From Escherichia coli (lineage in GTDB: Bacteria; Pseudomonadota; Gammaproteobacteria; Enterobacterales; Enterobacteriaceae), in NCBI RefSeq assembly GCF_045037415.1, contig NZ_CP173438.1: 64,000 nucleotides of DNA. The stretch is one strand, 5' to 3'. Position 1 is the stretch's first letter; each line of letters begins with the position of its first letter. The notes under the pieces were generated by a model. That model was not told the origin of the DNA, did not search any database, and saw only the letters and a list, made by a program, of their open reading frames with translations. Shown one piece after another: positions 38,542-64,000 of the stretch. The position numbers were made by a program, and so were the translations under genes.

Positions 38542-38573
38542 ATAACGGTATAATAAATAAACAAGGCCCCGTT

Positions 38574-39749: not shown

Positions 39750-39859
39750 AACTTGCTGCACAAAGTGAACCACGAGGATAGAACTTATTCCTCAAGGTTC
39801 TGGAGTGCCCCCAAGCCCGTAGACAAATCTGCCCTATAGTTTGAGCATAGGAGGAGTCT

Positions 39860-40144
39860 ATGGGCACACCACGATTTACCCCAGAGTTTAAGGAAGAAGC
39901 TGTCCGTCAGGTCACTGAACGGGGCTATTCCGTTGCCGATGTTTCTGAACGCCTCGGCGTATCGGCTCACAGCCTTTATAAGTGGGTCCGGTCAGTCAGA
40001 CCGGATAACAGCGGGCATCAGGCGCAGGATTTACTGGATGCGCGGACGGAGATTCTCAGGCTTAAAGCGCAGCTTAAACGTACTGAGGAAGAACGGGATA
40101 TTCTGAAAAAGGCAGCGCGGTACTTTGCAAGGGAGCCCGACTGA
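39860..40144 (+). CDS. IS3-family transposase OrfA (HTH)
   Basis: 94-aa ORF MGTPRFTPEFKEEAVRQVTERGYSVADVSERLGVSAHSLYKWV... followed by a leucine-zipper-like tail. Confidence 0.85.
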   Translation: MGTPRFTPEFKEEAVRQVTERGYSVADVSERLGVSAHSLYKWVRSVRPDNSGHQAQDLLDARTEILRLKAQLKRTEEERDILKKAARYFAREPD

Positions 40145-40546
40145 AGTACCGCTTCATCAACGATCACCGTGAAATCTGGTCGATCGTAACAATGTGTCGG
40201 GTTCTGAAGGTCGCCCGTGCGGGATTTTACGTCTGGCTTCATCGCCCTGTTTCTGCCGGAGAAAAGGATAATCAGCGGTTGCTGGAGCTCATCCGCGATG
40301 CTTATGCACTGAGCGGCGGAGTCTACGGTTATCGCAGGGTTCACGGCGATCTTCGTGAAATCGGTGAAGTATGCAGCAGAAACCGTGTTGCCAGAATCAT
40401 GAAGCGGAACAGGATACAGGCCGTACATGGCTATAAGGTCCCGCGTGGCGTCAGGGGAAGGCCGTCACTGATAGCTCCTAATCGCGTACAGAGGGAATTT
40501 ACGATGGTAAAACCCAACCAGGTGTGGGTGACTGATATTACCTACA
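40105..40546 (+). CDS. IS3-family transposase OrfB, 5' exon (entered by -1 frameshift near CTGAAAAAGG)
   Basis: The -1 frame is open from 40087 and reads ...LKYRFINDHREIWSIVTMCRVLKVARAGFY...QVWVTDITY. It is then cut by the intron after 40546. Confidence 0.75.
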
Positions 40547-42815: not shown

Positions 42816-43264
42816 TCCGCACCTGGCAGGGTTGGCTGTATCTGGCGGTGGTTATCGATCTTTTTGCCCGTAATGTGGTGGGCTGGTCGATGAAACCAAC
42901 GCTGTCGCGCGAGCTGGCACTGGATGCGCTGCTGATGGCAGTCTGGCGGCGTAAGCCTGCAGAAAACGTCATAGTGCACAGCGATCAGGGCAGTCAGTAT
43001 GGCAGTGATGACTGGCAGCGGTTCTGCAGGGCCAACAATCTGGCGCCGAGTATGAGCCGTCGTGGCAACTGCTGGGATAATGCGGTGGCAGAATCGTTCT
43101 TCAGTTCACTGAAAAAAGAGCGCATCAGAAAGCGGATATATAAAACCCGGGACATGGCCCGGGCGGATATCTTCGATTACATTGAAGTGTTCTACAACCG
43201 GACCCGGCGCCACAGTCATCTGGGTGGCGTCAGCCCGGAGGCCTTCGAAAAGGCCTCACCGTGA
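42816..43264 (+). CDS. IS3-family transposase OrfB, 3' exon (DDE/rve domain)
   Basis: Reads IRTWQGWLYLAVVIDLFARNVVGWSM...HSDQGSQY...CWDNAVAESFF...YNRTRRHSHLGG, a typical rve integrase core. Confidence 0.85.
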
Positions 43265-50065: not shown

Positions 50066-51463
50066 CTAGTCCTTCACTTTCATCGTGAAACCACGCCAGT
50101 CCGGTAGTGAAAGCGCGCCCGTTGCCACTACCCCATCATGATCCAGCATGCAGACACGACCAGGGTTCATACTGACAACCTCACGGATATACGCCTGCTC
50201 CACACCACAGATCATAAACGCCAACAGTGCCTTATTCCGCGCATATTGATGATGGTGAGTCTTTTCACGCTGATACACCTCACTATTAAGATCCAGTATT
50301 AATCCGACTTCATTAGCGTACCTGTGATAGTTACGCGGTGATGAACAACTCTTGCGGTGTGCGCCATGCACACGTTCCAGCAATGACTCAAGCGCAGATT
50401 TCAATGGACTGATATAACGGTTCCACCAACGCAAAATCTTTAGCGCCTTTTTTTTGCTGTTACCGCACCATCCATACACTTTTGCCCCAAGGCCATCATT
50501 AACACCAATAGTCACACGCCCAATTCTGTAGGTGGTGGTATGGACCATCTGTTTGCACTGTTTACGGGTCAGCCCGGTATGTTCCATCATGGTTTTATAT
50601 ATCGATGACTTCACACGATAATCGACGTCATACTGTCTGAACAGATGGTTCAGACAGGCCAGATTGCACGCTTCGATGTCATAGTTGAGTAACCCGGTCC
50701 GAAATTTAGCTTTGAACTCATTGGGCAGATTCTGGAAAGCTTGATCATAATACCGCCCTCCAAACGTCAGACGATAATGATGGTCGTAAGTGACATATTG
50801 TCCCTCAATCCTGCCATTGTAGAGATGGTTAAGGCTGCGTATTCCTGCGCGGTAATAGTGATCCGGCTCACGGCTACGCAATTCCTTCACAAACTGTATA
50901 CTCATGCGCCCCCGCCCAACTTTGGCCAAGAAGTCCTTTTCCGTTTGTTTTAGGGCCGTCTGGCGTTTCTCTACATCTATCGCATGCCCAGGAGCTTTCC
51001 CGTTCCCCTGAAGCAGAGCTCTAAAACTAACAGACTCACCAGTATCCAAGTCAACCAGATTTAACTTACCCCTGGCAGACTCATCACACACAGGCAGCAG
51101 GGGGTTGAACCGCCATGCACTGGCTCTACGCTTTTCCGGGTCTTTGCTCGCTTTTCCTGCACGAAATTCAATATCCGAAAGTGTCGGCAGGAAATCAGTT
51201 AGCGTGGACATAAAGCACTCCCCCTGGTAACTAATTTCACACTGTCCCAGGAGACTGGCATAGCTGCTACGGATATCCCGGACAGTGCATATAGTCCAGC
51301 CATCATCGTCTGTTTCCAGCCATATGTGAGCCAGGAACCACCGTACTGTCTGCCGCCGGGTAACAGCCCATTGCGTATCCCCCACGACATAATCCGTTAT
51401 TTCAGTAATACGGTCATAAACCCACTTAGGGATCTTCACTGGATAATCCTTTTCAGTACTCAC
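50066..51463 (-). CDS. Stand-alone family-A (Pol I-like) polymerase-domain protein with a novel N-terminal region
   Basis: 465 aa with a GTG start after GAGGGGA. Motifs read directly are NGRIEGQY...FGGRYYDQAFQNLP (cf. TGRxHTSY...TGRLSSxxPNLQNIP) and NYDIEACNL (motif A, DYSQIELR). Also present are RKQCKQMVHTTTYRIG (motif B, R-x3-K-x7-Y-x2-G) and MLDHDGVV (motif C, HDE). Confidence 0.65.
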   Translation of the reverse strand: MSTEKDYPVKIPKWVYDRITEITDYVVGDTQWAVTRRQTVRWFLAHIWLETDDDGWTICTVRDIRSSYASLLGQCEISYQGECFMSTLTDFLPTLSDIEFRAGKASKDPEKRRASAWRFNPLLPVCDESARGKLNLVDLDTGESVSFRALLQGNGKAPGHAIDVEKRQTALKQTEKDFLAKVGRGRMSIQFVKELRSREPDHYYRAGIRSLNHLYNGRIEGQYVTYDHHYRLTFGGRYYDQAFQNLPNEFKAKFRTGLLNYDIEACNLACLNHLFRQYDVDYRVKSSIYKTMMEHTGLTRKQCKQMVHTTTYRIGRVTIGVNDGLGAKVYGWCGNSKKKALKILRWWNRYISPLKSALESLLERVHGAHRKSCSSPRNYHRYANEVGLILDLNSEVYQREKTHHHQYARNKALLAFMICGVEQAYIREVVSMNPGRVCMLDHDGVVATGALSLPDWRGFTMKVKD

Positions 51464-51950
51464 GGTCCCCTCTCAGCATCCTCGTCTCACTACATTAACC
51501 AAACTCAACGCTGGGCAATTCGAAAGTCAAAACCCCAGTCGCGAGGATGGGCTCCGCCCATGATTTGCTCCACTCCGGTCGCAAATCTTTCCCCCTGTTC
51601 AGGCTGACGCCTTCCCTCACTCGCTGCGCTCGTTCGCCGTATCGTTTAATGACATGAGAAGGAGATGAAGCCTCCGTAGTGCTGCATGTCCCCAAGCTCT
51701 CCGTTGCGCTCAATGGCAATGGTGCTCGCTGACCGCTCCCCCCATTGTGTGTAGAATATTCACTGACAGAAACACAGAAAGCCCTCACAGATGCGCTAAC
51801 TCGTCAGTTGATGGTAAGGATCGGGTGTGCAGAGGCATCCGTGAGCCCCTGCAGAAAACAGACGGTTGCGTTAAAATCGAGACAGTTGGAATGTTAAAGT
51901 GCATCAGCGCCATCAAAATCACTGGCAAGCTTTGCAGTTTTACAACAACG

Positions 51951-51995
51951 AAAATGCAGTGGTTGCCGCTGTTATTCGTCGTTCCACTGCAATTT
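51951..51995. repeat. Inverted repeat AAAATGCAGTGG-N21-CCACTGCAATTT in the gap upstream of the polymerase gene
   Basis: 12-bp arms with one mismatch. The same 12-mer AAAATGCAGTGG recurs at 52930-52941. Confidence 0.8.
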
Positions 51996-52039
51996 AATCA
52001 ACAGCAAAAGTGCATTGCAGTTGCTGCATTACCGGTAAA

Positions 52040-52894
52040 TCAGTGCACTTTCCCTGGGGGTTGCCCAAACGAAAAAGAAACGACACCTGTTCCGAGTGAG
52101 TCCAGGGTAAGCAGACTTTTTAACAGTGTCCGGCCTTTCAGTAGCTCCATTCTTGACTTAACAAGAGCGTCTTTATCAGTCAGTGTGTAATCTGCTGTGT
52201 GCCAGACTGGATTCAGGGCGCATGAAATCAGTCTCGCGGGATCTTTATACCTGAGCACGATCACTGGTGTGTTAAGCGTCGATGCATCAATGAATGCCCC
52301 ACCACTTCGCGACATATGCGCTTTTAGCCCCTTAATCAACGTACTGTCATTGGGCAGGAACAAACACAACTGTGGAACCCAGAAAATACGCTCTTCTGGG
52401 CCATCAGGCATATGTCGCATCATACTGAAGGTGCCTGTGGCCGGACCGGCGTACCCCAGGCGGTTAAGTACCCGGCTTATCCTCTGCTTATAACGACCGA
52501 TTTGCGCCCTGAGCGCCCCAATGTTCTTCCATGGCGGCGGAGTTTGCGTATCCTTGTTGAAAAACAGGACCACTCCCACGTATTCTGCTGAATTCCCCGG
52601 CAAGACATGCAACATAGCCAGTTGCGCCAGAATGCGTTCCCGCTGGCAATGCGGGCATATAAGACTGTTGCATGGAGATCCGTTTCTGCACTGCCTTAGT
52701 TTTTGAGCAATGATGTTGTAGCAGCGATTGCTGCCTTTCAGTTTATTTAGTAAATGGTTAAGACGCTGCAGTTCATACTCACTTTCCTGCTGGGTAATAA
52801 TAGTGGGGAATGCTTTACTTAAAATCTCAAGCATTGACGGTGCGTGACGAATGTAATCCGGGTCAGATGTTCTGAAGTAATAAGAATCGTTCAT
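52040..52894 (-). CDS. Hypothetical protein with a CxxxxCPxC zinc-ribbon-like motif (possible replication initiator)
   Basis: 284 aa with AGGAA before the ATG. CNSLICPHCQRERILAQL resembles the Cys motif of some plasmid/phage Rep proteins, but I see no HUH motif. Confidence 0.55.
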   Translation of the reverse strand: MNDSYYFRTSDPDYIRHAPSMLEILSKAFPTIITQQESEYELQRLNHLLNKLKGSNRCYNIIAQKLRQCRNGSPCNSLICPHCQRERILAQLAMLHVLPGNSAEYVGVVLFFNKDTQTPPPWKNIGALRAQIGRYKQRISRVLNRLGYAGPATGTFSMMRHMPDGPEERIFWVPQLCLFLPNDSTLIKGLKAHMSRSGGAFIDASTLNTPVIVLRYKDPARLISCALNPVWHTADYTLTDKDALVKSRMELLKGRTLLKSLLTLDSLGTGVVSFSFGQPPGKVH

Positions 52895-52915
52895 TTAATA
52901 TTCCTAGCTGTATTG

Positions 52916-52950
52916 ATTACCCTGCCACCAAAATGCAGTGGCAGGGTAAT
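52916..52950. repeat. Perfect 13-bp stem hairpin ATTACCCTGCCAC-CAAAATGCA-GTGGCAGGGTAAT
   Basis: Read directly. It lies in the 87-bp spacer between the 155-aa and 284-aa genes, and its loop and right arm contain AAAATGCAGTGG. Confidence 0.9.
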
Positions 52951-52981
52951 ATGTCAGTTTTTCACCATACAGAAATGGCTA

Positions 52982-53449
52982 TTACCCGAATGACCTCGCC
53001 TGAGCATCTTCATGCCGCTCAACTAACTTATTGTAATCCCAATGATAAGAGGAATTTTTGTCGTTTGTTTCTAAAAAATCTAAAAATAACTCAGGCAACT
53101 GATATAAAGCGTATTCCCCGGTTACATCCACCCCCTGATAATGTAATTGCTGAGCGGTAGAACAATATGCACAGGCCCTGCTCCCGCAGGGAATGTATTT
53201 ACAACGCTCAAGGATAAGCGCCAGTTTAGCGTAGTTGCTCCACATGTCATCGGCCCCGCCGCAATCCTGTATGAGAATATTGGACACTGTATATGCAGAT
53301 GCGTAGTTAAGCTTACGTATCCGTAAACGCTGCTCCTTTAACACTGCTGATATCGTTTCTTGTGATAAACCAACCTGTTTCCCCATAGTTTCGAACCAAG
53401 GAACCAGCGTTTTTTTCGCAGAACTGGTTTTCGATTTTATCTCTTTCAT
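52982..53449 (-). CDS. Hypothetical Cys-rich protein
   Basis: ATG at 53449 (MKEIKSKTSSAKK...) lies 1 nt after the alpA stop and is preceded by GGAGA, giving 155 aa. Contains CKYIPCGSRACAYC. Confidence 0.55.
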   Translation of the reverse strand: MKEIKSKTSSAKKTLVPWFETMGKQVGLSQETISAVLKEQRLRIRKLNYASAYTVSNILIQDCGGADDMWSNYAKLALILERCKYIPCGSRACAYCSTAQQLHYQGVDVTGEYALYQLPELFLDFLETNDKNSSYHWDYNKLVERHEDAQARSFG

Positions 53450-53450
53450 T

Positions 53451-53648
53451 TCATTCTCCCGCCTGCATACGGCTGTTAACCCAGTTATTGATATCACTCT
53501 CCAGCCAGCCTACCGCCCGGCCATTGTCGCCCGTTAGCCTCTTTGACAAAGGAAAGAATCCTTTCGAGATGAGTCGGTACAACGTCGCTGACGAGTTCCC
53601 CGTCAGATGAAGTACCTCTTTTTTACGCAAAATACGGTTGGTGTTCAT
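53451..53648 (-). CDS. alpA: AlpA-family phage/island transcriptional regulator (excisionase-like HTH)
   Basis: 65-aa ORF MNTNRILRKKEVLHLTGNSSATLYRLISKGFFPLSKRLTGDNGRAVGWLESDINNWV, a typical AlpA signature. Confidence 0.85.
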   Translation of the reverse strand: MNTNRILRKKEVLHLTGNSSATLYRLISKGFFPLSKRLTGDNGRAVGWLESDINNWVNSRMQAGE

Positions 53649-53714
53649 GCTTGTGCTCCTTTGAGCTGTTTCAGGAGCGGGTTATTTACAACCACCAAAA
53701 AACGCAAGGATTCA

Positions 53715-53735
53715 CTCAACGATGCCTTCGTTGAG
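53715..53735. promoter_or_regulatory. Palindrome CTCAACGA-TGCC-(T)TCGTTGAG in the divergent promoter region
   Basis: An 8-bp inverted repeat between alpA (-) and the 204-aa gene (+). It is a candidate operator. Confidence 0.4.
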
Positions 53736-53870
53736 CACGTTAAGGGCATCTTTAATGTGGATGTCATTCGAGATCATCTATTTCTGTCTCCAGAACGGTC
53801 ATATAAAGAAGCAATTTTCACTGAGGCTCAATGGTGATATTTTGTACAAAACACTGTCATGGAGGTGACT

Positions 53871-54485
53871 ATGATTGGTAACCAAAGCAACAAGGCTGAC
53901 GCCAGATGCCACCGGGAACGGAAAAGCAGTAACGAGGTCTTTGAATTTCTGGAGAAGAAGCTTTATCTGGGACGGGATACCCGGCAAAAACTGGCACTGA
54001 TTGCCCGGAAACTGACGGGAGCGGGTTTTAGCCCGGATAAATTCGCTGCGGAGAAAGCGGCAGATGTGCTGAGTGCCTGCGTGAACCACATGTTTAATGA
54101 CCTGCTCAATGAGGGAGAGCCAAACGGGATTTATAGGCCGGAGGAACACCCCATGATAGTCCCGGCCAGGTCCCCTAAGGCACTGGAAATCTATACTGTT
54201 TACCAGCTTGTAAAAGGTCGTTTTGACAAGCTTCATACGGGGGAGTCAGATCGTGAGAAATATGCTTCGGTAGCAGAAAAACTTAATGAGTATGGAATAT
54301 GGAAACCCCGGTTAAAACGACTCTCTGACGGTAAAGAATGGGCGCGTGAGGATGTTGCGTGGATGCTTCAGCCTGAAAATATCAATGCACAAATTAACAT
54401 CCAGAATCAAAAGTACGCGCGGTTGAGTGCTGAAGATGAAACTGAAACCGAGTCTGGCAACGCCTCAACTGCTAAAAACATCTGA
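53871..54485 (+). CDS. Hypothetical protein
   Basis: The ORF track starts at 53859. ATG 53871 is preceded by GGAGG, giving 204 aa. I recognise no motif. The 3' end overlaps the convergent recombinase gene by 14 nt. Confidence 0.55.
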   Translation: MIGNQSNKADARCHRERKSSNEVFEFLEKKLYLGRDTRQKLALIARKLTGAGFSPDKFAAEKAADVLSACVNHMFNDLLNEGEPNGIYRPEEHPMIVPARSPKALEIYTVYQLVKGRFDKLHTGESDREKYASVAEKLNEYGIWKPRLKRLSDGKEWAREDVAWMLQPENINAQINIQNQKYARLSAEDETETESGNASTAKNI

Positions 54486-55401
54486 TGCGCTTGCTGGCAC
54501 TGATCTTCATAGTATCACCACGACAGTCATAGCGCGTCGTCGTGGATATGTCGCTGTGGCCTGCCAACTGGCGGACGGTATTGATATCCACGCCCTGCTC
54601 CAGCAAACGGGTGATGAAGGTGCGCCGCATATCATGCGGGGTAAAACGTGCTATACCTGCCGTTTGCTGTAACTCAGCCAGGATACCCGTTAACCCGGTC
54701 GTAGTCAGCGGTTGGCTTGCGACCTTACCACTGCGCTGAATTCGCCTAAACAACGCACTGTCAGCCTCGTCTGCGCCAACTTTCAGCCACGCACGAATAG
54801 CCTTGTCCACCGCATCCGCCACGTGAATTTCACGGTATTTACGCCCCTTCCCTTGCCTCACCGTCAGGATGCCGTTGTCATAGTCCCGGCGCTCAAGTTT
54901 AACCAGTTCCCCGGCCCGCAGGCCCGTTCCGCAAAGCATCAGCACAATGGCGACATCGCGACAGCGCCGTACAGATTGCGGATGCTGTTTTGCAGCCTGA
55001 ATCAGTACCCGGATTTCCTGCCTGCCCAGCGCCCTTCCCTTGCGCTGGACATCGCCGCTCACGCGCTTAACTGACCGGATACGTGCCAGCGTTTCGGCAT
55101 CCATGTAATTGAGGTTAAAGGCCGTCTGCGCTACGCCCCGGAGTGCTGACAGCGCCATGTTGACCGATGACACGGCGTAACCGTCATCCAGCAGTGCCGC
55201 GCGCACTTTGGCAACGGCGGCGTAGTTAAGTTGTTCCCACGGATAGTCTGCTGCATCCGCACCGTGTTTAAGTATGCTGGCGCTGCGGTTTAACAGGCTG
55301 GTGATACCTCGCCGTCCCGAGGGGGCCAGACCGACAATATACGCATCGAACACGGTGGTTTGCACCACCGGCACGACCTGACGCAACGCTGTCCTGCTCA
55401 T
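54472..55401 (-). CDS. Tyrosine recombinase (XerC/D-like phage integrase family)
   Basis: Catalytic contexts are TGLRAGE (R), GKGRKYR (K), HDMRRTF (HxxR), GHSDISTT (H) and TRYD (Y). I prefer ATG 55401 to the TTG at 55416. Confidence 0.85.
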   Translation of the reverse strand: MSRTALRQVVPVVQTTVFDAYIVGLAPSGRRGITSLLNRSASILKHGADAADYPWEQLNYAAVAKVRAALLDDGYAVSSVNMALSALRGVAQTAFNLNYMDAETLARIRSVKRVSGDVQRKGRALGRQEIRVLIQAAKQHPQSVRRCRDVAIVLMLCGTGLRAGELVKLERRDYDNGILTVRQGKGRKYREIHVADAVDKAIRAWLKVGADEADSALFRRIQRSGKVASQPLTTTGLTGILAELQQTAGIARFTPHDMRRTFITRLLEQGVDINTVRQLAGHSDISTTTRYDCRGDTMKISASKRIRCF

Positions 55402-55447
55402 GCGCGTAACCCGCAATAACGTACATTAAACCAAGTAACTTTCAGCA

Positions 55448-55900
55448 TCACACCAGTCCTCGCTCAGCCATCGACACCGTTTCAGTTCCTGCCACGATAA
55501 AGTGATCAAGTAACCGCACATCCAGTATTTCCAGCAGCTCCTGAAGCTTTTTGGTCAACTGGATGTCACACCGGCTGGGTTCAGGCTCGCCGCTGGGGTG
55601 ATTATGGACAAGGATGACGGCGGCGGCGTTATGTTTCAGCACACGCTTAATAACTTCACGGGGGTGAACGCTGACCGAGTTTAGCGTACCCCTGAACAGG
55701 ATTTCGCGGTGCAGCAGCTGATTATGATTATCGAGTAGGATGATGCCAAACTCTTCATGTTCAAGCGGTGCCAGCTCAACCATCACGCACCGTCGAACAT
55801 CATCAGGGGAACAGAGTTGAACCCCACGCTGGTAGTACCGGCTAATAATGTCACGCGCCTGGTCAAGGATACGGGTTTCACGCTGGGTAAACATGGTCAT
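55448..55900 (-). CDS. RadC-like JAB/JAMM domain protein (YeeS/YfjY/YkfG family)
   Basis: ATG 55900 lies 1 nt after the upstream stop. The JAMM motif is LVHNHPSGEPEPSRCD. Confidence 0.85.
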   Translation of the reverse strand: MTMFTQRETRILDQARDIISRYYQRGVQLCSPDDVRRCVMVELAPLEHEEFGIILLDNHNQLLHREILFRGTLNSVSVHPREVIKRVLKHNAAAVILVHNHPSGEPEPSRCDIQLTKKLQELLEILDVRLLDHFIVAGTETVSMAERGLV

Positions 55901-55901
55901 G

Positions 55902-56441
55902 TCAGAACTCCCGTTCAATGAAGTAAATGGCGTCTGGAAACAGCTGGCGGCGGGTTACGCCAGTACGCAGGGAGAAAGCTTTACGGGGCATGGTGGTTCG
56001 CCCGTTGCTGTCGAAGAAGCAGAGCATTTCTTCGTCCATTTTGACCAGAAGGGACCAGTGAAACTGGTCGCTGAGCATAATCAGGCGAGAGTGGTCAGTG
56101 ACGTCAAGAAACCGCTGCATTTCCCTGAACAGCCGCCCGTCTGTTAACCCCCGCTTCCCTGCAAAGGGTCTGGTGATTTCAACCGGGAACTGGCGGCGGT
56201 AATGCCCTTTCTGCAACACCTGAGCTATTAACCAGTCTAAGCGGTCTTCTTCAATTCCTTCAGTCAGCCATTCATGCAAAGGCCAGCGCTGCTGATAAGT
56301 CTGAATAAGCCAGTTCATTAACGGGCGTCGTTTCACCCTGCCGTCATACAGCCAGCTCAGCATGTTAACCACGCAATAAGCACCGCAAAGACAGTCCAGT
56401 TCGCCCTGTTGAGACGCACGTATCCCTCTGTCAGTCGTCAC
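55902..56441 (-). CDS. Predicted papain-fold cysteine peptidase-like protein
   Basis: 179 aa with a GTG start after GGGGA. QQGELDCLCGAYC has the Gln-x5-Cys spacing typical of papain-like oxyanion/nucleophile pairs. DQFHWSLLV...FFDSNG supplies candidate His and Asp/Asn residues. Confidence 0.5.
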   Translation of the reverse strand: MTTDRGIRASQQGELDCLCGAYCVVNMLSWLYDGRVKRRPLMNWLIQTYQQRWPLHEWLTEGIEEDRLDWLIAQVLQKGHYRRQFPVEITRPFAGKRGLTDGRLFREMQRFLDVTDHSRLIMLSDQFHWSLLVKMDEEMLCFFDSNGRTTMPRKAFSLRTGVTRRQLFPDAIYFIEREF

Positions 56442-56482
56442 AGATAATTCCCCATAAATTAGTGATGGTTAGTACAGGGGGA

Positions 56483-56905
56483 TTAGCTTTCCCAGAGAAC
56501 GGTAATGGTGTAGATGTTCATGCCGTGATACTGAATAAAGTTGGATTGCCAGAGTTCAAACAGCTCCCTTCCGGCGTTAACAGGCAGGTCACCAACATAA
56601 GCAAGAAAGACATATTGCTGACTCCAGCTGATATCAATTTCCTTTTCAAGTTCGGGGTATACCGTCCCCATATAACTGAAGTCGGTAATGTAATCAAAAT
56701 ACCATTCATCATTGCGTGAAATAATCCGTATTTCGACAGGATGGTAACCACCCTTTTCAGCGCTGTAACTCAGGTCTTTAAATAACAGACTGACGGCTGT
56801 AATTTTGGCTTTATGCGGCGGTGGATTTCCCGCTTCATTTAATATGATATTTATTAATTCCTGATCGACGGGCATAGCTAGCCCTTCCTGATGGACAATA
56901 TTCAT
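56483..56905 (-). CDS. Hypothetical 140-aa protein (possibly DUF2787-like; family recalled with low certainty)
   Basis: AGGAAA precedes the ATG. It is the first gene of the minus-strand operon 56905->54472. Confidence 0.5.
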   Translation of the reverse strand: MNIVHQEGLAMPVDQELINIILNEAGNPPPHKAKITAVSLLFKDLSYSAEKGGYHPVEIRIISRNDEWYFDYITDFSYMGTVYPELEKEIDISWSQQYVFLAYVGDLPVNAGRELFELWQSNFIQYHGMNIYTITVLWES

Positions 56906-57162
56906 CAGTGATTTTCCTGTTCAATATATTCTGATAAGACGTTATGTCTGCACCAGCACAGGTGGGGTTTAATCACCTAATAAATGGTAAGTGCATGACA
57001 ACGTACTGACTGGGTAAAATATAGTTCACCAGCAATATTATTATATCAAAAATATACTTTTTATGCAAATAGTAACAAAGAGAAACTAATATGTGGTTCA
57101 GCAATGAAATAACTGGCAATAGGTTTTTATTCATTATTAAGTGATGGCATACTTTCCATTCT

Positions 57163-57214
57163 GCCATGTCAGACAGGTCAGGATTCCGGGGTGGTTCCTT
57201 CTGTCTGGCATGGC
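57163..57214. repeat. 14-bp-stem inverted repeat just 3' of the c-like repressor gene
   Basis: GCCATGTCAGACAG-N24-CTGTCTGGCATGGC pairs with one G-U. No U-tract occurs on either strand. Confidence 0.7.
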
Positions 57215-57229
57215 GGAAAACTGACGCTA

Positions 57230-57718
57230 TCACACCTTCCCGTTCAGCTTTTCAAAGAGGCGCTTACGCTCATCTTCGGGCAGCTTCATGATTTGTACCG
57301 CCAGTTCAGAAACATTGGGCACCTGAGACATCAGATCGTCCTTTACCAGCCTGAGGGCCTGCTCCATCAGTTGCGCCCGCGAAGCTGGCGACATATTGCG
57401 ATACAGCTGCACCCAGAGGCTTAGCTGGCGATCACTGTCGTTGAGAGTAAACGCTTCGCCCTTAGCCCTGTTTCTCTCATCATCAAGCGACATTGTGGCT
57501 GCGCTAATATGGTAAACCACACCTTTCCCGGCAGTCCTTTTACGACGTATTTCCGGGTGCAGGGATGCCAGCTTTTCCAAGCGCATCCTGGCGCCACGCG
57601 CAGTGCCCGGCATCCCCTCAATATGAGTGAATTCCTCTGCTGTCAGCCAGTCTTTAGCCTCTTCAACAGAAGCTTCAGGATGAGTAGGTATAGCCGAAAC
57701 TGTTCTCTTACTGCTCAT
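57230..57718 (-). CDS. Mu Repc(c)-like DNA-binding repressor
   Basis: ATG 57718 gives 162 aa. EEFTHIEGMPGTARGARMRLEKL...RKRTAGKGVVYH parallels the Mu c repressor N-terminal winged-helix region (...MPGSVAGVHYRA...RKKEGVKGGKAVEY) as I recall it. Confidence 0.6.
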   Translation of the reverse strand: MSSKRTVSAIPTHPEASVEEAKDWLTAEEFTHIEGMPGTARGARMRLEKLASLHPEIRRKRTAGKGVVYHISAATMSLDDERNRAKGEAFTLNDSDRQLSLWVQLYRNMSPASRAQLMEQALRLVKDDLMSQVPNVSELAVQIMKLPEDERKRLFEKLNGKV

Positions 57719-57764
57719 ATAAATTTCACCAGATATCAATGCGTTAATATGAAAACCAATAAAT

Positions 57765-57792
57765 AGATACCAAAAGAACTTGAAAGGTATCT
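57765..57792. promoter_or_regulatory. Inverted repeat AGATACC-N14-GGTATCT in the c/ner divergent intergenic region
   Basis: Read directly. The region also contains three TTAATA(T/C) copies. It is a candidate operator. Confidence 0.4.
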
Positions 57793-57839
57793 TTTATTCG
57801 CATTTAATATCCATGTACTGATTCCATGGAGTTAATACT

Positions 57840-58109
57840 GTGCGTAACTCAACAGCATCGCAGAAAAAGCAAATCAAAGGAAGTTCAGGGAACTGGCATC
57901 GTGCCGATATTGTGGCAGCACTTCACAAGCGAGGGTTAACGCTGGCGTTACTGTCACGCAGTCACGGCCTTGCGCCACGGACATTAAATAACGCCTTAGA
58001 GCGTCATTATCCCAGAGCTGAGCGCATTATTGCCGGGGCTCTGGATACGACACCGGAAACATTATGGCCGGAAAGGTATGCCCTTAAAAATGGACCTAAT
58101 AGCAGGTAA
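57840..58109 (+). CDS. Ner/Nlp(SfsB)-family DNA-binding protein
   Basis: 89 aa. WHRADIVAALHKRGLTLALLSRSHGLAPRTLNNALERHYPRAERIIAGALDTTPETLWPERY is the Ner-like HTH signature. Confidence 0.85.
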   Translation: MRNSTASQKKQIKGSSGNWHRADIVAALHKRGLTLALLSRSHGLAPRTLNNALERHYPRAERIIAGALDTTPETLWPERYALKNGPNSR

Positions 58110-58120
58110 AGGATGCAACC

Positions 58121-58648
58121 ATGGCAACCACCATCACTGAAATAACGGAATGCTTTGAGTATTTTTTCAGTTCTCTTTATCGCAGGGAGTTCGTCAAAAC
58201 CCTGCGTCTGAACGAATGTAGCGAGCGGGAATTACTGCCTCTGGTACGTTGCTATTTGCTGGGTTGGTTTGCAGATAACGTCTCACCGGAAGTAAAAAGC
58301 AAACTGCCAGGAACTGTATCCGGGCACGGTTACATTGATTTTGTCATTGACGATGTGGCCGTTGAGTTTGCAGTACGTAAACCAACTGCGGCACGTTCCA
58401 ATGTCTCTGCGACCGTCAACAGTACAGAAGTAAAGAAATTGATGAAACATGACGGCAAAGCCTTGCTTGTGCTGTTTGATTTCTCTGACACACCCTATTC
58501 AGAAGAACAGATTGAATCCTTCCGCAACTGGCCCTCTCTTGGTCGAGGGAATCATCGCAAGTCTGCATTCAACGTCGTTTATTTCTTTGTGGAAAAACGC
58601 AGACCGCTGGCACTGGGGAAAATCACCAAAAACATCCGTATCACTTAA
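58121..58648 (+). CDS. Hypothetical cytoplasmic protein, possible PD-(D/E)xK-like fold
   Basis: 175 aa with AAGGA before the ATG. GYIDFVIDDVAVEFAVRK...STEVKK could supply D...E.K, but the spacing is atypical. Confidence 0.5.
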   Translation: MATTITEITECFEYFFSSLYRREFVKTLRLNECSERELLPLVRCYLLGWFADNVSPEVKSKLPGTVSGHGYIDFVIDDVAVEFAVRKPTAARSNVSATVNSTEVKKLMKHDGKALLVLFDFSDTPYSEEQIESFRNWPSLGRGNHRKSAFNVVYFFVEKRRPLALGKITKNIRIT

Positions 58649-58662
58649 CAGGGAATTAATTA

Positions 58663-59022
58663 ATGAACAGAAAACTGTTGGCCTTATTCATGGCAGCCAT
58701 AACGCTACCAGTCGCAGCAGCGCAGTACGTAAAACCCGGAGCGGTTCTAACCCTGCATCCGGGACAGAATAACGCTGAATTCAACATTAATGCCTCAACG
58801 GGGGATGGTTCGGGCGTATGCAATATGGAGGGGACAGCACAGCAAATAGCTGCCGGAGAAAGTCAGAAGCGTCGCTGGGTCTGGAATGACAATGCCAGCG
58901 AGTGTGTTGCAGTAATTAGTGAACTGACAAACGGTAAGGCCAGCATTATGACACGTGGTTGCGAGGGATACTGCGGGGCTTCTGCGGCAGGCGCAATGGA
59001 TGGTCTATTTAATAAGAAATAA
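58663..59022 (+). CDS. Hypothetical secreted protein (signal peptide, four Cys)
   Basis: 119 aa. MNRKLLALFMAAITLPVAAAQ is a signal peptide ending in an AxA-like cleavage site. Confidence 0.55.
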   Translation: MNRKLLALFMAAITLPVAAAQYVKPGAVLTLHPGQNNAEFNINASTGDGSGVCNMEGTAQQIAAGESQKRRWVWNDNASECVAVISELTNGKASIMTRGCEGYCGASAAGAMDGLFNKK

Positions 59023-59052
59023 AAGTATCATTAATTTACGAAGGAACTACAG

Positions 59053-59388
59053 ATGAAAAGAGCAATACTTCTGGTATTAATTGCTGCTGGTTTGCTGGCT
59101 GGCTGCGGCGAGAAAACGCCAAAATGTAGTAGTGATGATGCAAAAAATCTGGTCGGGGATATTGCAAGAAAGACAATCGAGAAAGGGATGAAACTGGATA
59201 AGGATGTGCGTATTTCTGTAGAAAATGTCAGAACAATTAGCCATGAATCAGATCTGGATGTTTATCAGTGCGCTGCTGATTTAACGTTTACAAAACCAGA
59301 TTTGCAAAATTCTCTACCAATCACCTACCGGATTCAGAAAACTGATGAGGGTAAAGGTCCGTTTTATATAAACGTAACAGGTTTATAA
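59053..59388 (+). CDS. Hypothetical lipoprotein
   Basis: 111 aa with the lipobox LLAGC after a hydrophobic leader, and AAGGA before the ATG. Confidence 0.6.
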   Translation: MKRAILLVLIAAGLLAGCGEKTPKCSSDDAKNLVGDIARKTIEKGMKLDKDVRISVENVRTISHESDLDVYQCAADLTFTKPDLQNSLPITYRIQKTDEGKGPFYINVTGL

Positions 59389-59454
59389 TCACTGAATAAC
59401 ATCCGGGTTCCTTTTGGGTGAAATAATTCATGTTTTATTCCAAAAGGAAACCCT

Positions 59455-59700
59455 ATGAAAAAGATCATCATATTTACCATTATAGCTATTATCACATTTA
59501 GTTGGCTCGTTACACACAATACAACTGAGTCCGAAAAAATCCCTCCTGCTAATACTCCCTTTATTATTAAGTCTAACGTACCTGGCATGTGCAAGGTCAG
59601 CGCCATCACAACCTCTACAGATACCAAACAGAATATACCTGTCGTAGCGTGCAAAATCAGCATTACGACCGCAATCACTTCCAGTACTACCAGTTACTGA
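59455..59700 (+). CDS. Hypothetical small signal-anchored protein (Thr/Ser-rich)
   Basis: 81 aa. MKKIIIFTIIAIITFSWLV is an N-terminal TM segment. AAAGGAAA precedes the ATG. Confidence 0.5.
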   Translation: MKKIIIFTIIAIITFSWLVTHNTTESEKIPPANTPFIIKSNVPGMCKVSAITTSTDTKQNIPVVACKISITTAITSSTTSY

Positions 59701-60267
59701 TCACTGTGTTTACTTTACCGACAGACTGGGATACAAAAACGTCAAACACCTTCTCAATCAGTCTTATACCGTAAGCAATGCCGGGTGTGTCGGGCTCTGA
59801 GGGTTGATTAATTCCACAGGCATATGAAGACTAAATCCTACCATCCCCATACCTGCTGAGCCGCTCCGTTGAACATCTTTATCGCCTTGCTGTGGGTGCC
59901 AATCACGGCTATCCCCGCCCGTCTTGTAGGTTGGGGCTCACCAAATACGATGCCACTGGGAAGCTCTTTCAGTGTCACGTAATGCCATTTATAGCCCAGA
60001 TATGACCTGCTACTGAGCTAACTACATTGATTTGCCTAAATCCTGGGGCCTCTAAAGCGTCAGCGCCGCGCAGCAGTATAGGCAAGCCACTTTTAACGGG
60101 TTTTATCCGGCTCCCTGAGGCTGCTTTCAGAAAAGGCGTGTAATCGGATAACTACAGCAACCTAGGGAAGTATGTGCTTGTAGAATGAATGCAGTGGTAA
60201 TCAAGACTACCGCTTTTACAAACCCCACCAATCGTATAACTGCGATTTGATGGCTACCCATCCTAAG

Positions 60268-62154
60268 TTACTTCATTAAAATAGCACTATTTTTTGAGGG
60301 CAGCGGGATAAGGGCTCTGCGCTCTCCATCCATTGCATGTTCACCCGCAAACCATTCGTAATGAACTTTATTCATGATTGATACCGGCGGTTCTTTATTC
60401 TCTATAACTATGATTTGTAAGGTATCAGGCAATTGGGTCAGTGAATGCCAGAAGCCTTCCTCAATACCAGCCGATATGGGTTCATCGAAGCCCGATACCG
60501 TAGCAGCGGCTTTCTTCTTATAACTTGTCAGCGGTGAATCAATCACGACTAGCCCAGGATGCGGGTATCCTTTTTTAATACAATATTTTAGTAATCCAAT
60601 GATGAAAGCTGAATAAAGAATGGCACGAACACCTTTACCGTGAGACTGCCGAGGTTGTCCATCAACAATGATGTCATACTCTTTTTCATTAAATGAAACG
60701 TCAGGCTCGGCACCCCATTTCCAGTCTTTTAAAACAGTTTCAATTTCTCTACAAAGTTCGGCCAGCGTACGGGTAGATAATCCCTCCCATTCGAGCCGTG
60801 GTTGACTGCTCTTTTCCAGCAGTATTTCTATATCCTTTTGATGTTTTAGTAACTCAAACCATCTCTGTCGATCATTCAACTCAGAGTCTCTTTCAGCTCG
60901 CTGCTCAATAGCTAAATCTAGGCTTTCTTTGGAAAGTGTAAGAAGAGGCTCAAAAGTATATTTGATCTGGTTCTTCATTCCATCCAAGCTTTCTTTTGAC
61001 TTATATCTGTCTATATTCAGAGCTTCTTTTCTTCGGTCAAGATCACTCATCGCTTTTTGCAGGCCTGCAAGGTATCCATGAATTTTTGCAGCTTCAGCTA
61101 AAGAAGAACGTCGGACTTCATTACTGTTCATTAATTTTTTAGCGTTCTCACTGTGTGGATGTAGTAAATTTTGTCCACAAAGGGAACAAGGAACTTCCTG
61201 AAGTGAAGTGAAATAGTGAGAACCTTCGGAAATAAAATCCAACCGCTTCAGGTCGGAATGGTAACGTTCTTCTAATAGGCTATATCTCGATTGAATTTCA
61301 GATACTCCCATTAACTGAGATTCTATTTTTAACGTTAACGCTGTCTCCATTTTTATTCCCTCGAGCAAGTCAGAAATAGCGGCTGCAGCCCTCTCAACTT
61401 CATCAATTGCTTGTGCAATCAATTGATCTGATAAATCATCTGCTGAGCTCGTTAATGGAAACTTGGGCGAACAAATTGAGAAACGTTCATCAAGTGGTCG
61501 AATCAAATCCTGGATGAATTCAAGCTTCGCCATCAACCTCGCTTTTACAATTTCAGGCTTTTCCTCTACGGTAACACCACCATCATCGTGCCCGGTAAGG
61601 ATGTATGAAAACATGCGTTTTCGAGCAGTGTCGTCATAACCGGAACGTCCCGTTACTGGCGAGTATTCGTCGATAATGGATACTTCATCTACCAAAAATA
61701 TAGGAGCGAGCGTTCGAATCGAGAAACGTTGCGTTTCGCCACGAGCATTCTTGCGAAGCTTCGCCTCTTTGATCCCCGCAAAAGGGAAAAGTATGGACGT
61801 CACATCTGGCCCCTTACTCGTTCCTTTACGCACAGGAGCAATTATTTTACCTTCTCCATGGATGTCTTGAATAGCGACATCATGTGCCTCTAATTTCCCC
61901 CCCTCAAGACCGCGCTTGAGCGTTAACACCCCCCCTTCATCATTTTCGAATTCAACATAAAGATGGGTGTAATCGGTGGCCTCTTTAAGCTTTTTTTTGA
62001 GTTTTTCGGCACCAAGAATGTAGTCAAGACAACTCACAAGGTAACTTTTCCCAGTATCAGATTCCCCTGCTAGAATATTCGCACCCTTATAGAAATCAAC
62101 ATAAGCGTCTTGAACGCTGTTTCCGCGCAATAGTATTTTTCTTATACGAAGCAT
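60268..62154 (-). CDS. Rad50/SMC-like ABC ATPase (LmuB / ABC-3C ATPase, DUF3732-like)
   Basis: ATG 62154 lies 1 nt after the upstream stop (MLRIRKILLRGN...). It has Walker A GESDTGKSY and a long central helical region with CSLCGQ (CxxC, zinc-hook-like). The C-terminal motif is GLVVIDSPLTSY (Walker B/D-loop). Confidence 0.75.
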   Translation of the reverse strand: MLRIRKILLRGNSVQDAYVDFYKGANILAGESDTGKSYLVSCLDYILGAEKLKKKLKEATDYTHLYVEFENDEGGVLTLKRGLEGGKLEAHDVAIQDIHGEGKIIAPVRKGTSKGPDVTSILFPFAGIKEAKLRKNARGETQRFSIRTLAPIFLVDEVSIIDEYSPVTGRSGYDDTARKRMFSYILTGHDDGGVTVEEKPEIVKARLMAKLEFIQDLIRPLDERFSICSPKFPLTSSADDLSDQLIAQAIDEVERAAAAISDLLEGIKMETALTLKIESQLMGVSEIQSRYSLLEERYHSDLKRLDFISEGSHYFTSLQEVPCSLCGQNLLHPHSENAKKLMNSNEVRRSSLAEAAKIHGYLAGLQKAMSDLDRRKEALNIDRYKSKESLDGMKNQIKYTFEPLLTLSKESLDLAIEQRAERDSELNDRQRWFELLKHQKDIEILLEKSSQPRLEWEGLSTRTLAELCREIETVLKDWKWGAEPDVSFNEKEYDIIVDGQPRQSHGKGVRAILYSAFIIGLLKYCIKKGYPHPGLVVIDSPLTSYKKKAAATVSGFDEPISAGIEEGFWHSLTQLPDTLQIIVIENKEPPVSIMNKVHYEWFAGEHAMDGERRALIPLPSKNSAILMK

Positions 62155-62155
62155 G

Positions 62156-62671
62156 TTATAAATCCAGTAGATCAATTGCGGTCAATCGGTCGAATTCAGA
62201 ACCCCATTGCCCCACATTCTGAGATATATATGAAGCAAGTTCTTCATCCGTATATTCATAGAATTGCTTTGTGACCCAAGAGGCACGTTCTGCGAGCTCT
62301 TTTGAATACTGTGACATCAAAAGCCGCACAAACCTTCCTGTTAAATTGGTAGCCTGATACAAAATACCTTCGGCAGCAAAGACAACCTTAATCAATTCTC
62401 TTGATAGCATTAAATGCAGCCCTGCCTGAATTGCGCTTCGCTTAACAAGAAGCTCTGCTCCCCGGTGAGGAACTGCTGGATGAAGGCTTTTAGGCCCCCT
62501 AGGTACGTCACTGGTATGCACAAGAAGATAGTCATACGAAACTATCCTTTGTAGGTCCATTGCTACATTGTCCGCTGCATCCAATATGAACAGAGCACGA
62601 AATCCATACTCCAGCGGAGTGTTAAAAGGTCTCTGCTCAAAGTTTCCTTCAAATACTTGCATTTCGCTCAT
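62156..62671 (-). CDS. Small helical middle component (LmuC / ABC-3C middle-component-like)
   Basis: ATG 62671 forms an ATGA overlap with the upstream stop, giving 171 aa with no enzymatic motif. Its position between effector and ATPase matches three-gene Lamassu. Confidence 0.6.
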   Translation of the reverse strand: MSEMQVFEGNFEQRPFNTPLEYGFRALFILDAADNVAMDLQRIVSYDYLLVHTSDVPRGPKSLHPAVPHRGAELLVKRSAIQAGLHLMLSRELIKVVFAAEGILYQATNLTGRFVRLLMSQYSKELAERASWVTKQFYEYTDEELASYISQNVGQWGSEFDRLTAIDLLDL

Positions 62672-63807
62672 GGATTGCACCAATTAATCAAGTTTGTATT
62701 GGCTAGTTGGTGGCATATACCTTCACGATCCTTATTCGTTACGTGAATGGCAAGTGGGTGCGCACCAAGTTGCAGGGTCTGAGCGGCCTTGACGGTATTT
62801 TTTAACCGAAGGAGTGGAGTCCCTGTCAGGTCAGAGGTGTAGTGATACAGACCATCATCAAACTCTACAAGTAAAGAATTAAAGAATTCTTGATTCGCCA
62901 TTTGGTCCCTAGCGAGTTCCTTTAGCCCTTCCGAGCAATAAAAAGTTATTCGGGACCGTTCAAAGAGTTTTACATGGCTGATACTTGATTGAAAATCAAC
63001 TAAATCTCGCACGTTGGTTTTGATATCAGCGCTGATAACTGAAAAGAGTTGTTCAATATATACAGTTTCAATGGGAGCCACAGATGATGGGGGCCTAGTT
63101 GGTGGATCCCGCTCAATTAATGGTGCGCCAAAGACCATAAGATGAAAAGAGGTTTTACTGTGTTCGGCAAGTATCTCAATAGGCTGTTTTGCATGAAAAA
63201 TACTAAAATCAAACTCTTTAATATATTTTTCAAGTTCAGGCGTCAGGTCAACACTATGTTTCGATGTAATTTGCTTTGAAAAAGTTGCCCACTCGGATAG
63301 CATTTTCTCTTTGAGTTTAGTTGGATCATCTAGGAGGTCTTGGAATGGCGATGTTACCCCTTTATGTGTAACAAAATGGTATTGTGTAGGTACTGTGTAG
63401 TCCTTGATGAAAGTATAATAGATAACTTTTGCAACTTCGATGCCTGCCTTAGGAAGGCCTAAATTCGCATCATAATGTTTGCATTGATATAAGTGCCATC
63501 TTCGAGGAACAGCATCAGATGGATCAAGCCATACAACAATATCTCTGCCTTTATCTCCTGCCCCGCCACGTTGTTGTACTTCGTTGACATATTGCTGACC
63601 AGCTAAGTATTCAGAGGCCCATTCGAGTGTAAACCTTTCAAATTCGGCGGCGCTAAACTGTGCCAGACGATCCAAGGGGGCTATTGGAAGCCCTACACCT
63701 AACCCAAGCAGCCGAGCGTTCGCACCCGGCCACGTTGTAGGAGCAGAAAGCGCGCCAAGCGTCGAACTTGAATTTTGTTTCATCTTCTCTACCACCACAA
63801 CCTCCAT
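62668..63807 (-). CDS. Mrr-type PD-(D/E)xK nuclease fused to a long C-terminal domain (LmuA-like effector)
   Basis: 379 aa, with an alternative ATG at 63783. FERFTLEWASEYL...GGAGDKGRDIVVW...WHLYQCKHY matches the Mrr_cat pattern (D-G-x-D ... Q-x-K). Confidence 0.7.
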   Translation of the reverse strand: MEVVVVEKMKQNSSSTLGALSAPTTWPGANARLLGLGVGLPIAPLDRLAQFSAAEFERFTLEWASEYLAGQQYVNEVQQRGGAGDKGRDIVVWLDPSDAVPRRWHLYQCKHYDANLGLPKAGIEVAKVIYYTFIKDYTVPTQYHFVTHKGVTSPFQDLLDDPTKLKEKMLSEWATFSKQITSKHSVDLTPELEKYIKEFDFSIFHAKQPIEILAEHSKTSFHLMVFGAPLIERDPPTRPPSSVAPIETVYIEQLFSVISADIKTNVRDLVDFQSSISHVKLFERSRITFYCSEGLKELARDQMANQEFFNSLLVEFDDGLYHYTSDLTGTPLLRLKNTVKAAQTLQLGAHPLAIHVTNKDREGICHQLANTNLINWCNP

Positions 63808-64000
63808 GGAGAAGTGATATTAAATCTTTAGTCTTTTAAAATTTTACAAAATCTAACACAGTGCGCCAGGAAAGTAATTGACTAAGGTTCCCCACACACA
63901 AGAGCAAATCTTAACCTTGCTACGGGACATAACTACTTCCGCCCCACCGGCTACCCAGTCATCGACAGTTTGGCAGCTCACTCCACTGTGCCGAGCATAA

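Follow-up and report, generated by a model that had tools for sequence, protein, structure and literature searches.

Which system do the three consecutive open reading frames (ORFs) at 60268-63807 on the minus strand of Escherichia coli contig NZ_CP173438.1 (assembly GCF_045037415.1) encode, and what is it for? We addressed this question in a 64,000-nucleotide stretch of that contig, hereafter the window. A preliminary description, drawn from the letters of the window, had read the three genes as an operon for an Mrr-type nuclease, a small middle component and a Rad50-like ATP-binding cassette (ABC) ATPase of type II Lamassu or ABC-3C architecture. The genes, lmuA, lmuC and lmuB, very probably constitute a type II "short" Lamassu, complete and intact, that belongs to the Mrr subtype (Lamassu-Mrr; ABC-3C, with CTD6 and MC2), the same operon as the one validated from E. 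coli SE15. Both the operon and its phage defence are already known, and this is not a new system.

Family assignment and identity with SG108

Profile searches placed all three proteins in the Lamassu family. The preliminary description had proposed such searches with PADLOC and hidden Markov models and had named the absence of Lamassu or ABC-3C hits as the outcome that would count against it; all three proteins matched Lamassu profiles strongly. LmuA matched PADLOC model PDLC03852 over nearly its full length (E = 1.4e-105), LmuC matched PDLC03871 (E = 4.1e-57) and LmuB matched PDLC03863 over its full length (E = 3.8e-176), these best models being different from those to which the operon proteins have weak matches. 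Pfam identified the ABC-3C C-terminal domain CTD6 in LmuA (E = 1.5e-34) and the ABC-3C middle component MC2 in LmuC (E = 4.6e-54), and NCBIfam gave for the three proteins only a sub-threshold RecN match. Type II Lamassu is recognised by an N-terminal effector of variable type joined to a C-terminal ABC-3C domain and by an lmuC placed between lmuA and lmuB, and both features are found here. The further label "DdmABC-like" stands at the family level but not in subtype: DdmABC combines a Cap4/DUF4297 effector carrying CTD7 with the middle component MC3, whereas this operon has an Mrr-like effector, for which Pfam gives CTD6, together with MC2.

The CTD6-MC2-LmuB module was also found outside E. 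coli. In Serratia and Sphingobium it retains the same order and junctions, including the same 4-nt lmuA/lmuC overlap, and in Ralstonia the order and gap are compatible; the neighbouring genes are unrelated in each.

The operon was compared with SG108, which is listed as "Lamassu-Fam" from E. coli O150:H5 SE15 and marked verified in Table S2 of Millman et al. (2022, bioRxiv 10.1101/2022.05.11.491447), with its components labelled Mrr nuclease LmuA, winged helix-turn-helix (wHTH) LmuC and SMC LmuB. LmuA was identical to its SG108 counterpart at 379/379 residues, LmuC (residues 4-171) at 168/168, and LmuB (residues 10-408) at all 399 compared residues. The part of the printed SG108 DNA that falls inside the window, upstream of the operon, was identical at 357/357 nt, and the insert length of 3876 bp maps the clone to window positions 60167-64042. 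The IMG annotation of SG108 places the start of LmuC 3 codons, and that of LmuB 8 codons, further downstream. With no difference detected wherever the two were compared, SG108 (Lamassu-Mrr of SE15) is read as the same locus.

Cloned with its native promoter into E. coli MG1655, Lamassu-Mrr from SE15 was reported to provide anti-phage defence (10.1101/2022.05.11.491447). MG1655 carrying it survived SECphi27 at low multiplicity of infection (MOI) and the culture collapsed at high MOI, which is the pattern of abortive infection (10.1101/2022.05.11.491447). Point mutations in the ATPase and the effector, as well as deletion of lmuC, abolish defence in validated Lamassu-family systems, although the preprint text does not itemise these results for SG108 (10.1101/2022.05.11.491447). 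Given the identity to SG108, the experiment suggested in the preliminary description, cloning with the native promoter into K-12 followed by a phage panel, has already been done on the same sequence, with defence reported (Millman et al. 2022). Its remark that the Mrr variant lacks a mechanistic study still appears true: literature searches returned no mechanistic paper on Lamassu-Mrr and, in the portions of those sources that were available, mentions beyond the 2022 preprint merely list the system. The locus therefore has little weight as a discovery, the subtype being catalogued and the phage defence of this very operon already reported; its value lies in being a ready, validated representative of the Lamassu branch with an Mrr effector, CTD6, MC2 and a zinc-hook LmuB.

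The same architecture is found in SG107, a Lamassu with an Mrr nuclease from Bacillus cereus 172560W, which comprises an Mrr-type LmuA, a wHTH LmuC and a 626-aa, SMC-like LmuB containing CxxC. Over 366 aa its LmuA is 31% identical to the E. coli LmuA, and the aligned part takes in the motifs GAGDxGRD and YQCKHY.

Properties of the three subunits

Homologues were aligned for each subunit (25 for LmuA, 40 for LmuC and 34 for LmuB). The Mrr-like nuclease motifs previously noticed in the first gene, GDKGRD and YQCKHY, are both present in LmuA (Table 1), and E57, E62, G84, D85, K86, G87, R88, D89, Y107, Q108, C109 and K110 are invariant across the alignment. A D...QxK arrangement is the pattern of Mrr-type PD-(D/E)xK nucleases. 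The AlphaFold2 (AF2) model of LmuA, with a mean predicted local distance difference test score (pLDDT) of 81.9, comprises a nuclease core at about residues 53-147 and a helical C-terminal half. The core has the PD-(D/E)xK fold with a D...(Q/E)xK pattern in which D85, D89, Q108 and K110 are invariant, and YQCKHY sits on its third strand; interpretation of the D...QxK residues as a putative Mrr-type active site is thus supported by the predicted fold. The helical C-terminal part is somewhat shorter than first estimated, the model giving ~230 aa after the nuclease core rather than ~250 aa.

In Foldseek comparisons of the LmuA model, solved Lamassu LmuA chains rank first. The nearest non-Lamassu structures in the fold comparison were AF1548 (1y88; score 7.3), LlaBIII (7.2), MspJI (7.0) and AspBHI (6.8), with Cap4 at 6.4. 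Unlike the restriction nucleases AF1548, LlaBIII, MspJI and AspBHI, LmuA has no DNA-modification-reading or translocase domains, and it differs from Mrr-family, type IV and ISP nucleases in that its nuclease is fused to a Lamassu C-terminal domain. Pfam reported in it neither Mrr_N nor an N-terminal modification-reading domain. One LmuA homologue has a precomputed PF04471 (Mrr_cat) match. Control of the LmuA nuclease presumably depends on its sequestration and not on recognition of a target.

The AF2 model of LmuC (pLDDT 83.2) consists of a winged helix followed by C-terminal helices. Its best structural match was V. cholerae LmuC (9uxh_D), at a TM-score of 0.55 over 162 columns, and MarR-type wHTH proteins were weaker matches. 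At the sequence level, LmuA and LmuC are far removed from the solved proteins: profile searches gave no match of either to solved Cap4-type LmuA or LmuC, neither profile found anything meaningful in the PDB, and neither reached a solved Lamassu chain there even at E = 1 to 10. Single-sequence PDB searches returned no relatives for LmuA, LmuC or LmuB. Taken together, all three subunits resemble solved Lamassu subunits more than other PDB entries, with large sequence divergence in LmuA and LmuC.

LmuB contains each of the ABC ATPase motifs that had been pointed out in the third gene, namely GESDTGKS, which fits the Walker A pattern Gx4GK[S/T], CSLC and GLVVIDSP (Table 1), and a cluster of 100% identical 628-aa LmuB sequences was found in E. 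coli. In its Walker B, D539 is followed by S540 in place of E, and the Walker B consensus of short Lamassu is hhhhD[Q/S/T/E] (Haudiquet et al.). LmuB accordingly fits the short type both in this motif (VVIDS) and in its length (628 aa, against about 600 aa expected). Searched with the LmuB profile, the PDB gave S. enterica LmuB (9hqu_A, entered there as a DUF3732 protein) at E = 6.4e-16, the aligned region spanning profile positions 2-562. In this alignment all four motifs (Walker A, CxxC, the signature and Walker B) fall opposite one another, with CSLC aligned to the S. enterica CPMC and with G506 and G508 aligned to the GSG of 9hqu_A. Profile positions of about 308-497 gave weak matches to coiled-coil proteins. 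Judged from its sequence, LmuB probably has a coiled-coil insert between its ATPase half-sites with CxxC at the apex. Its remaining similarities were weak: the other PADLOC matches, GajA and AriA (E 3.5e-4 to 9e-3), cover the first ~65 residues around Walker A, and weak Rad50, SMC and RecN matches likewise fall on the Walker A region.

Proposed mechanism and competing explanations

All solved Lamassu structures have Cap4 effectors, being either type II systems with Cap4, CTD7 and MC3 or, in one case, a type I LmuAB without LmuC. In Cap4-type Lamassu, an LmuA1-LmuB2-LmuC1 complex sequesters the C-terminal domain of LmuA, and the LmuB head and LmuC bind double-stranded DNA (dsDNA) ends; ATP lowers end binding, and the deviant Walker B hydrolyses it slowly. 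Once released, LmuA assembles into a cyclic tetramer, where an active site built from two nuclease domains cuts DNA non-specifically. The V. cholerae DdmABC system is triggered by hairpin-forming palindromes and DNA damage, and the S. enterica LmuACB system needs its zinc hook for defence.

Li et al. place systems combining CTD6-12 and MC2-8 with a small LmuB in the same diverged sub-family as the solved ones, and on this basis we infer a mechanism for the present operon from the solved V. cholerae and S. enterica Cap4-type systems. Two LmuB protomers, joined through the CxxC zinc hook and folded back, would hold one LmuA and one LmuC. The LmuB pair would bind the C-terminal domain of LmuA and hold that protein in a monomeric, inactive state, while the LmuB head and the LmuC winged helix would bind dsDNA ends or related structures of phage replication. 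ATP binding, or slow hydrolysis at the deviant Walker B (VVIDS), may then release LmuA. Free LmuA would oligomerise through CTD6, allowing the Mrr-type PD-(D/E)xK domains (D85/D89, Q108, K110) to pair as an active nuclease. This nuclease would cut DNA without sequence specificity, so that the infected cell is killed or arrested before the phage cycle is completed.

The systems that serve as models differ from the present one in several respects. S. enterica LmuACB (PDB 9hqu, 9hqx, 9hr5; Li et al. 2025) has a Cap4-type effector with CTD7 and an LmuC of the MC3 family, in contrast to Mrr/CTD6 and MC2 here, and the LmuA and LmuC of the present operon have no detectable sequence similarity to it. 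V. cholerae DdmABC, or Lamassu Vc-Cap4 (PDB 9ny5, 9nyg, 9nxx, 9uxh), likewise carries a Cap4 effector where the E. coli operon has Mrr, and its LmuB lacks the zinc hook, whereas CxxC is invariant in the E. coli LmuB. Anti-plasmid activity and the palindrome trigger are known for the V. cholerae system, and the E. coli operon is known for phage defence only. Rad50-Mre11/SbcCD, the proposed evolutionary origin of Lamassu, shares with LmuB the ABC heads split by a coiled coil and the apical CxxC zinc hook. LmuB differs from it in a much shorter coiled coil, in the absence of an Mre11/SbcD nuclease and in a Walker B without the catalytic glutamate; by analogy, the Lamassu effector would also be released instead of acting at the bound DNA end.

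Several points weigh against the assignment to an intact, defence-active Lamassu-Mrr working in this manner. For the last ~220 residues of SG108 LmuB, identity is supported by agreement in length only (620 aa when counted from the later start), and the homologous SG107, from the Firmicute B. cereus, gave no defence in the 2022 screen, where it is marked 'x'. LmuA residues 49-119 scored 19.8 bits against Pfam Mrr_cat PF04471 (E = 9e-4), just under the cut-off of 21. Full-length LmuA gave low Foldseek TM-scores with its model (0.21-0.28, at borderline E values of 7e-4 to 1e-2), the outcome to be expected when two domains are joined by a flexible linker. Similarity of LmuB to V. cholerae LmuB appears only in the N-terminal 80 residues (E = 5e-5). 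The proposed sequence of molecular events is modelled on Cap4-CTD7/MC3 systems, and for the Mrr subtype the trigger, the specificity of cleavage and the oligomer that active LmuA forms would follow from analogy with them.

Two alternatives accept the Lamassu-Mrr assignment and differ in role or mechanism. The same operon could serve in nature mainly to exclude plasmids and mobile elements, as DdmABC does, with phage defence secondary; we consider this unlikely. DdmABC makes plasmids unstable, and its trigger is hairpin-forming palindromes, whether on plasmids or on phages; related Cap4 Lamassu systems are toxic when expressed from a plasmid and are also anti-phage, and distant LmuB homologues are common on plasmids (147 records, with 78 matching plasmids predicted to be conjugative). 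For this operon, however, phage defence is the only reported activity, the operon was kept on the pSG1 plasmid in MG1655 with no toxicity reported, and literature searches found no anti-plasmid test of the Mrr subtype. ST131 carriers of the operon also commonly carry plasmids, which counts against such a role. It is quite unlikely, in turn, that the Mrr-CTD6/MC2 branch works unlike Cap4-CTD7/MC3 systems, by way of another trigger or activating DNA, another oligomer, a zinc-hook-dependent higher-order assembly, or a nuclease selective for phage (for example modified) DNA in place of indiscriminate cleavage. The culture collapse at high MOI is a hallmark of abortive infection (Millman et al.), the nuclease part of LmuA is a catalytic core alone, Pfam having reported no N-terminal modification-reading domain, and the LmuA and LmuC folds still best match solved Lamassu subunits. 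The idea of a distinct mechanism draws on the divergence of CTD6 and MC2 from CTD7 and MC3, which is too great for detection by profiles, on the modification-dependent type IV enzymes within the Mrr family, with MspJI and AspBHI as structural neighbours of LmuA, and on the prediction that other CTD families form oligomers of different size (Li et al.). If it were true, this operon, widespread in ST131, would be a convenient model for how the branch differs.

The remaining alternatives deny the Lamassu assignment or its activity. The weak Mrr_cat match of LmuA and the weak GajA and AriA matches in the first ~65 residues of LmuB could suggest a type IV restriction enzyme of the classical, Mrr-like kind that works with accessory proteins, or an ABC ATPase system of the OLD, Gabija or PARIS type. 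The Lamassu models, however, are the better match by 100 to 170 orders of magnitude and cover the full length, CTD6 and MC2 are ABC-3C-specific families, and Pfam reported neither a TOPRIM/OLD nuclease nor an Mrr_N domain, so that the PADLOC and Pfam results effectively refute this reading, to which we assign a negligible probability. Profile evidence similarly led us to reject a Rad50-type repair system. A housekeeping Rad50/SbcC-type repair module, or an inactive remnant, is exceedingly improbable: there is no Mre11/SbcD partner, no more than 510 of the 5426 complete E. coli genomes carry the operon, and it lies in an integrase island beside a retron, its three ORFs being intact, its motifs conserved and its sequence matching a functional clone. 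The Rad50-like architecture of LmuB, its weak Rad50/SMC/RecN matches and the proposed derivation of Lamassu from SbcCD would fit a repair function, and lmuB is split by IS1A or ISEc52 in a few genomes, yet the segment targeted by these insertion sequences (IS) is intact in 498/506 genomes.

Locus structure, distribution and genomic context

The coupled arrangement of the three genes noted in the preliminary description, an ATGA overlap at the first junction and a single base at the second, is seen directly in the sequence (Table 1). Three start codons are candidates for lmuA: ATG 63807, used by IMG and in the preliminary description; GTG 63795, with GGAGG 5 nt upstream and in keeping with most homologues, which are 375 aa long; and ATG 63783, used by RefSeq (371 aa). 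The first ~20 residues of LmuA are unconserved and modelled at low confidence.

Table 1. Coordinates of the Lamassu-Mrr genes, their junctions and motifs, and the recombinases of the island (window positions)
Feature	Position	Strand	Remarks
lmuA	62668..63807	-	379 aa; effector: N-terminal Mrr-like PD-(D/E)xK nuclease and C-terminal ABC-3C CTD6
lmuC	62156..62671	-	171 aa, ATG at 62671; middle component MC2, winged helix
lmuB	60268..62154	-	628 aa, ATG at 62154; short-type Rad50/SMC-like ABC ATPase
ATGA overlap, lmuA stop/lmuC start	62668..62671	-	sequence read directly
One-base spacer, lmuC TAA to lmuB ATG	62155	-	sequence read directly
Operon 5' untranslated region/promoter region	63808..64000, on to ~64042 past window end	-	identical to start of the SG108 fragment defending from its native promoter
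Mrr-like nuclease core of LmuA	63358..63678	-	residues about 44-150; alpha-beta-beta-beta-alpha-beta topology
GDKGRD motif, LmuA residues 84-89	63541..63558	-	candidate catalytic D85, D89
YQCKHY motif, LmuA residues 107-112	63472..63489	-	Q-x-K half (Q108, K110) of putative Mrr-type active site
CTD6 domain of LmuA, residues 247-376	62680..63069	-	presumed docking and oligomerisation domain
Walker A GESDTGKS, LmuB residues 30-37	62044..62067	-	G30, S32, D33, T34, G35, K36 invariant (34 homologues)
CxxC zinc-hook motif CSLC, LmuB residues 323-326, coiled-coil apex	61177..61188	-	C323, C326, H332 invariant
Signature-like motif SHGKG, LmuB residues 504-508	60631..60645	-	R502, S504, G506, G508 invariant
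Deviant Walker B GLVVIDSP, LmuB residues 534-541	60532..60555	-	D539, P541 invariant; S540 nearly invariant
Tyrosine recombinase, island integrase 1	about 38573-39748		
Tyrosine recombinase, second	about 54472-55401		

A consensus promoter scan found no convincing promoter upstream of lmuA, and the number of promoter and terminator matches in the scan equalled the shuffle expectation. Rfam at E <= 0.1 gave no RNA family in 59300-64000. The operon had been described as more AT-rich than its flanks; with a GC content of 0.428, it is so relative to the window (0.506) and to the 5-kb left flank (0.468), but not relative to the DNA that directly adjoins it (0.427 in 59000-60267; 0.44 in the 193 bp of 63808-64000). 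Because the adjoining DNA is equally AT-rich, low GC belongs to the distal island and not to the operon alone. The ~880 bp downstream of lmuB (59389-60267) hold no RefSeq-annotated gene; an 81-aa ORF with an apparent signal peptide lies at 59455-59700 (+), and GC falls to 0.36-0.39 around 59000-59750.

The 4-kb region was found at >=99% identity in 510/5426 complete E. coli genomes, O25b:H4-ST131 isolates included. With ~9% of complete genomes carrying the operon, among them the pandemic ST131, it is relevant to the choice of therapy phages. The locus is chromosomal in all complete RefSeq carriers and nearly always single-copy (median one, maximum two places per genome); plasmids and a few phages, too, carry distant LmuB homologues. 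Two E. coli records filed as plasmids, CP088398.1 and CP054248.1 (377 kb and 542 kb), contain an lmuB that is 99-100% identical, in one case together with ISEc52, and may be mis-assigned chromosomal contigs, since the locus is chromosomal in all complete RefSeq genomes. The insertions that split lmuB, by IS1A (e.g. NZ_CP145628.1) or ISEc52 (e.g. NZ_CM132302.1), lie at about 61011-61020 and about 61148-61155, and the ISEc52 site is ~25 nt from the zinc-hook codons. Common IS disruption of lmuB was considered and rejected as a BLAST ranking artefact, the genomes in which the segment is intact having been counted with a 501-bp query (60900-61400).

The window aligns colinearly with the sequence of E. 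coli SA186, in which the island spans ~28 kb from ychF to dhaR. This agrees with the earlier placement of the operon in the distal part of an integrase island, as does the presence of tyrosine recombinases. The island contains two of these, together with IS fragments, a group II intron, a series of hypothetical genes and, past the window end at about 64042-65799, a retron reverse transcriptase/endonuclease gene of the Ec67 family. This retron gene is on the same strand as lmuA, separated from it by 235 bp on the upstream side; the dhaR end of the island thus holds a small defence cluster to which the Lamassu operon belongs. The start of the SG108 clone appears to coincide exactly with the end of the retron gene.

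Ten island ORFs in 50066-59388, from a transposase fragment to lmuB, gave no PADLOC match and a single Pfam match, DUF2787 at 56483-56875; RadC and the second tyrosine recombinase are among the ORFs of this segment. Beside the first integrase, the SA186 annotation shows a group II intron reverse transcriptase/maturase (ltrA) at 39859-43264, inserted in an ISEc24 copy. One tRNA-Tyr gene is present in the window at 2637-2721, against a tandem pair in SA186; an overlap of ~100 nt between the two BLAST pieces at this point is consistent with recombinational loss of one repeat unit.

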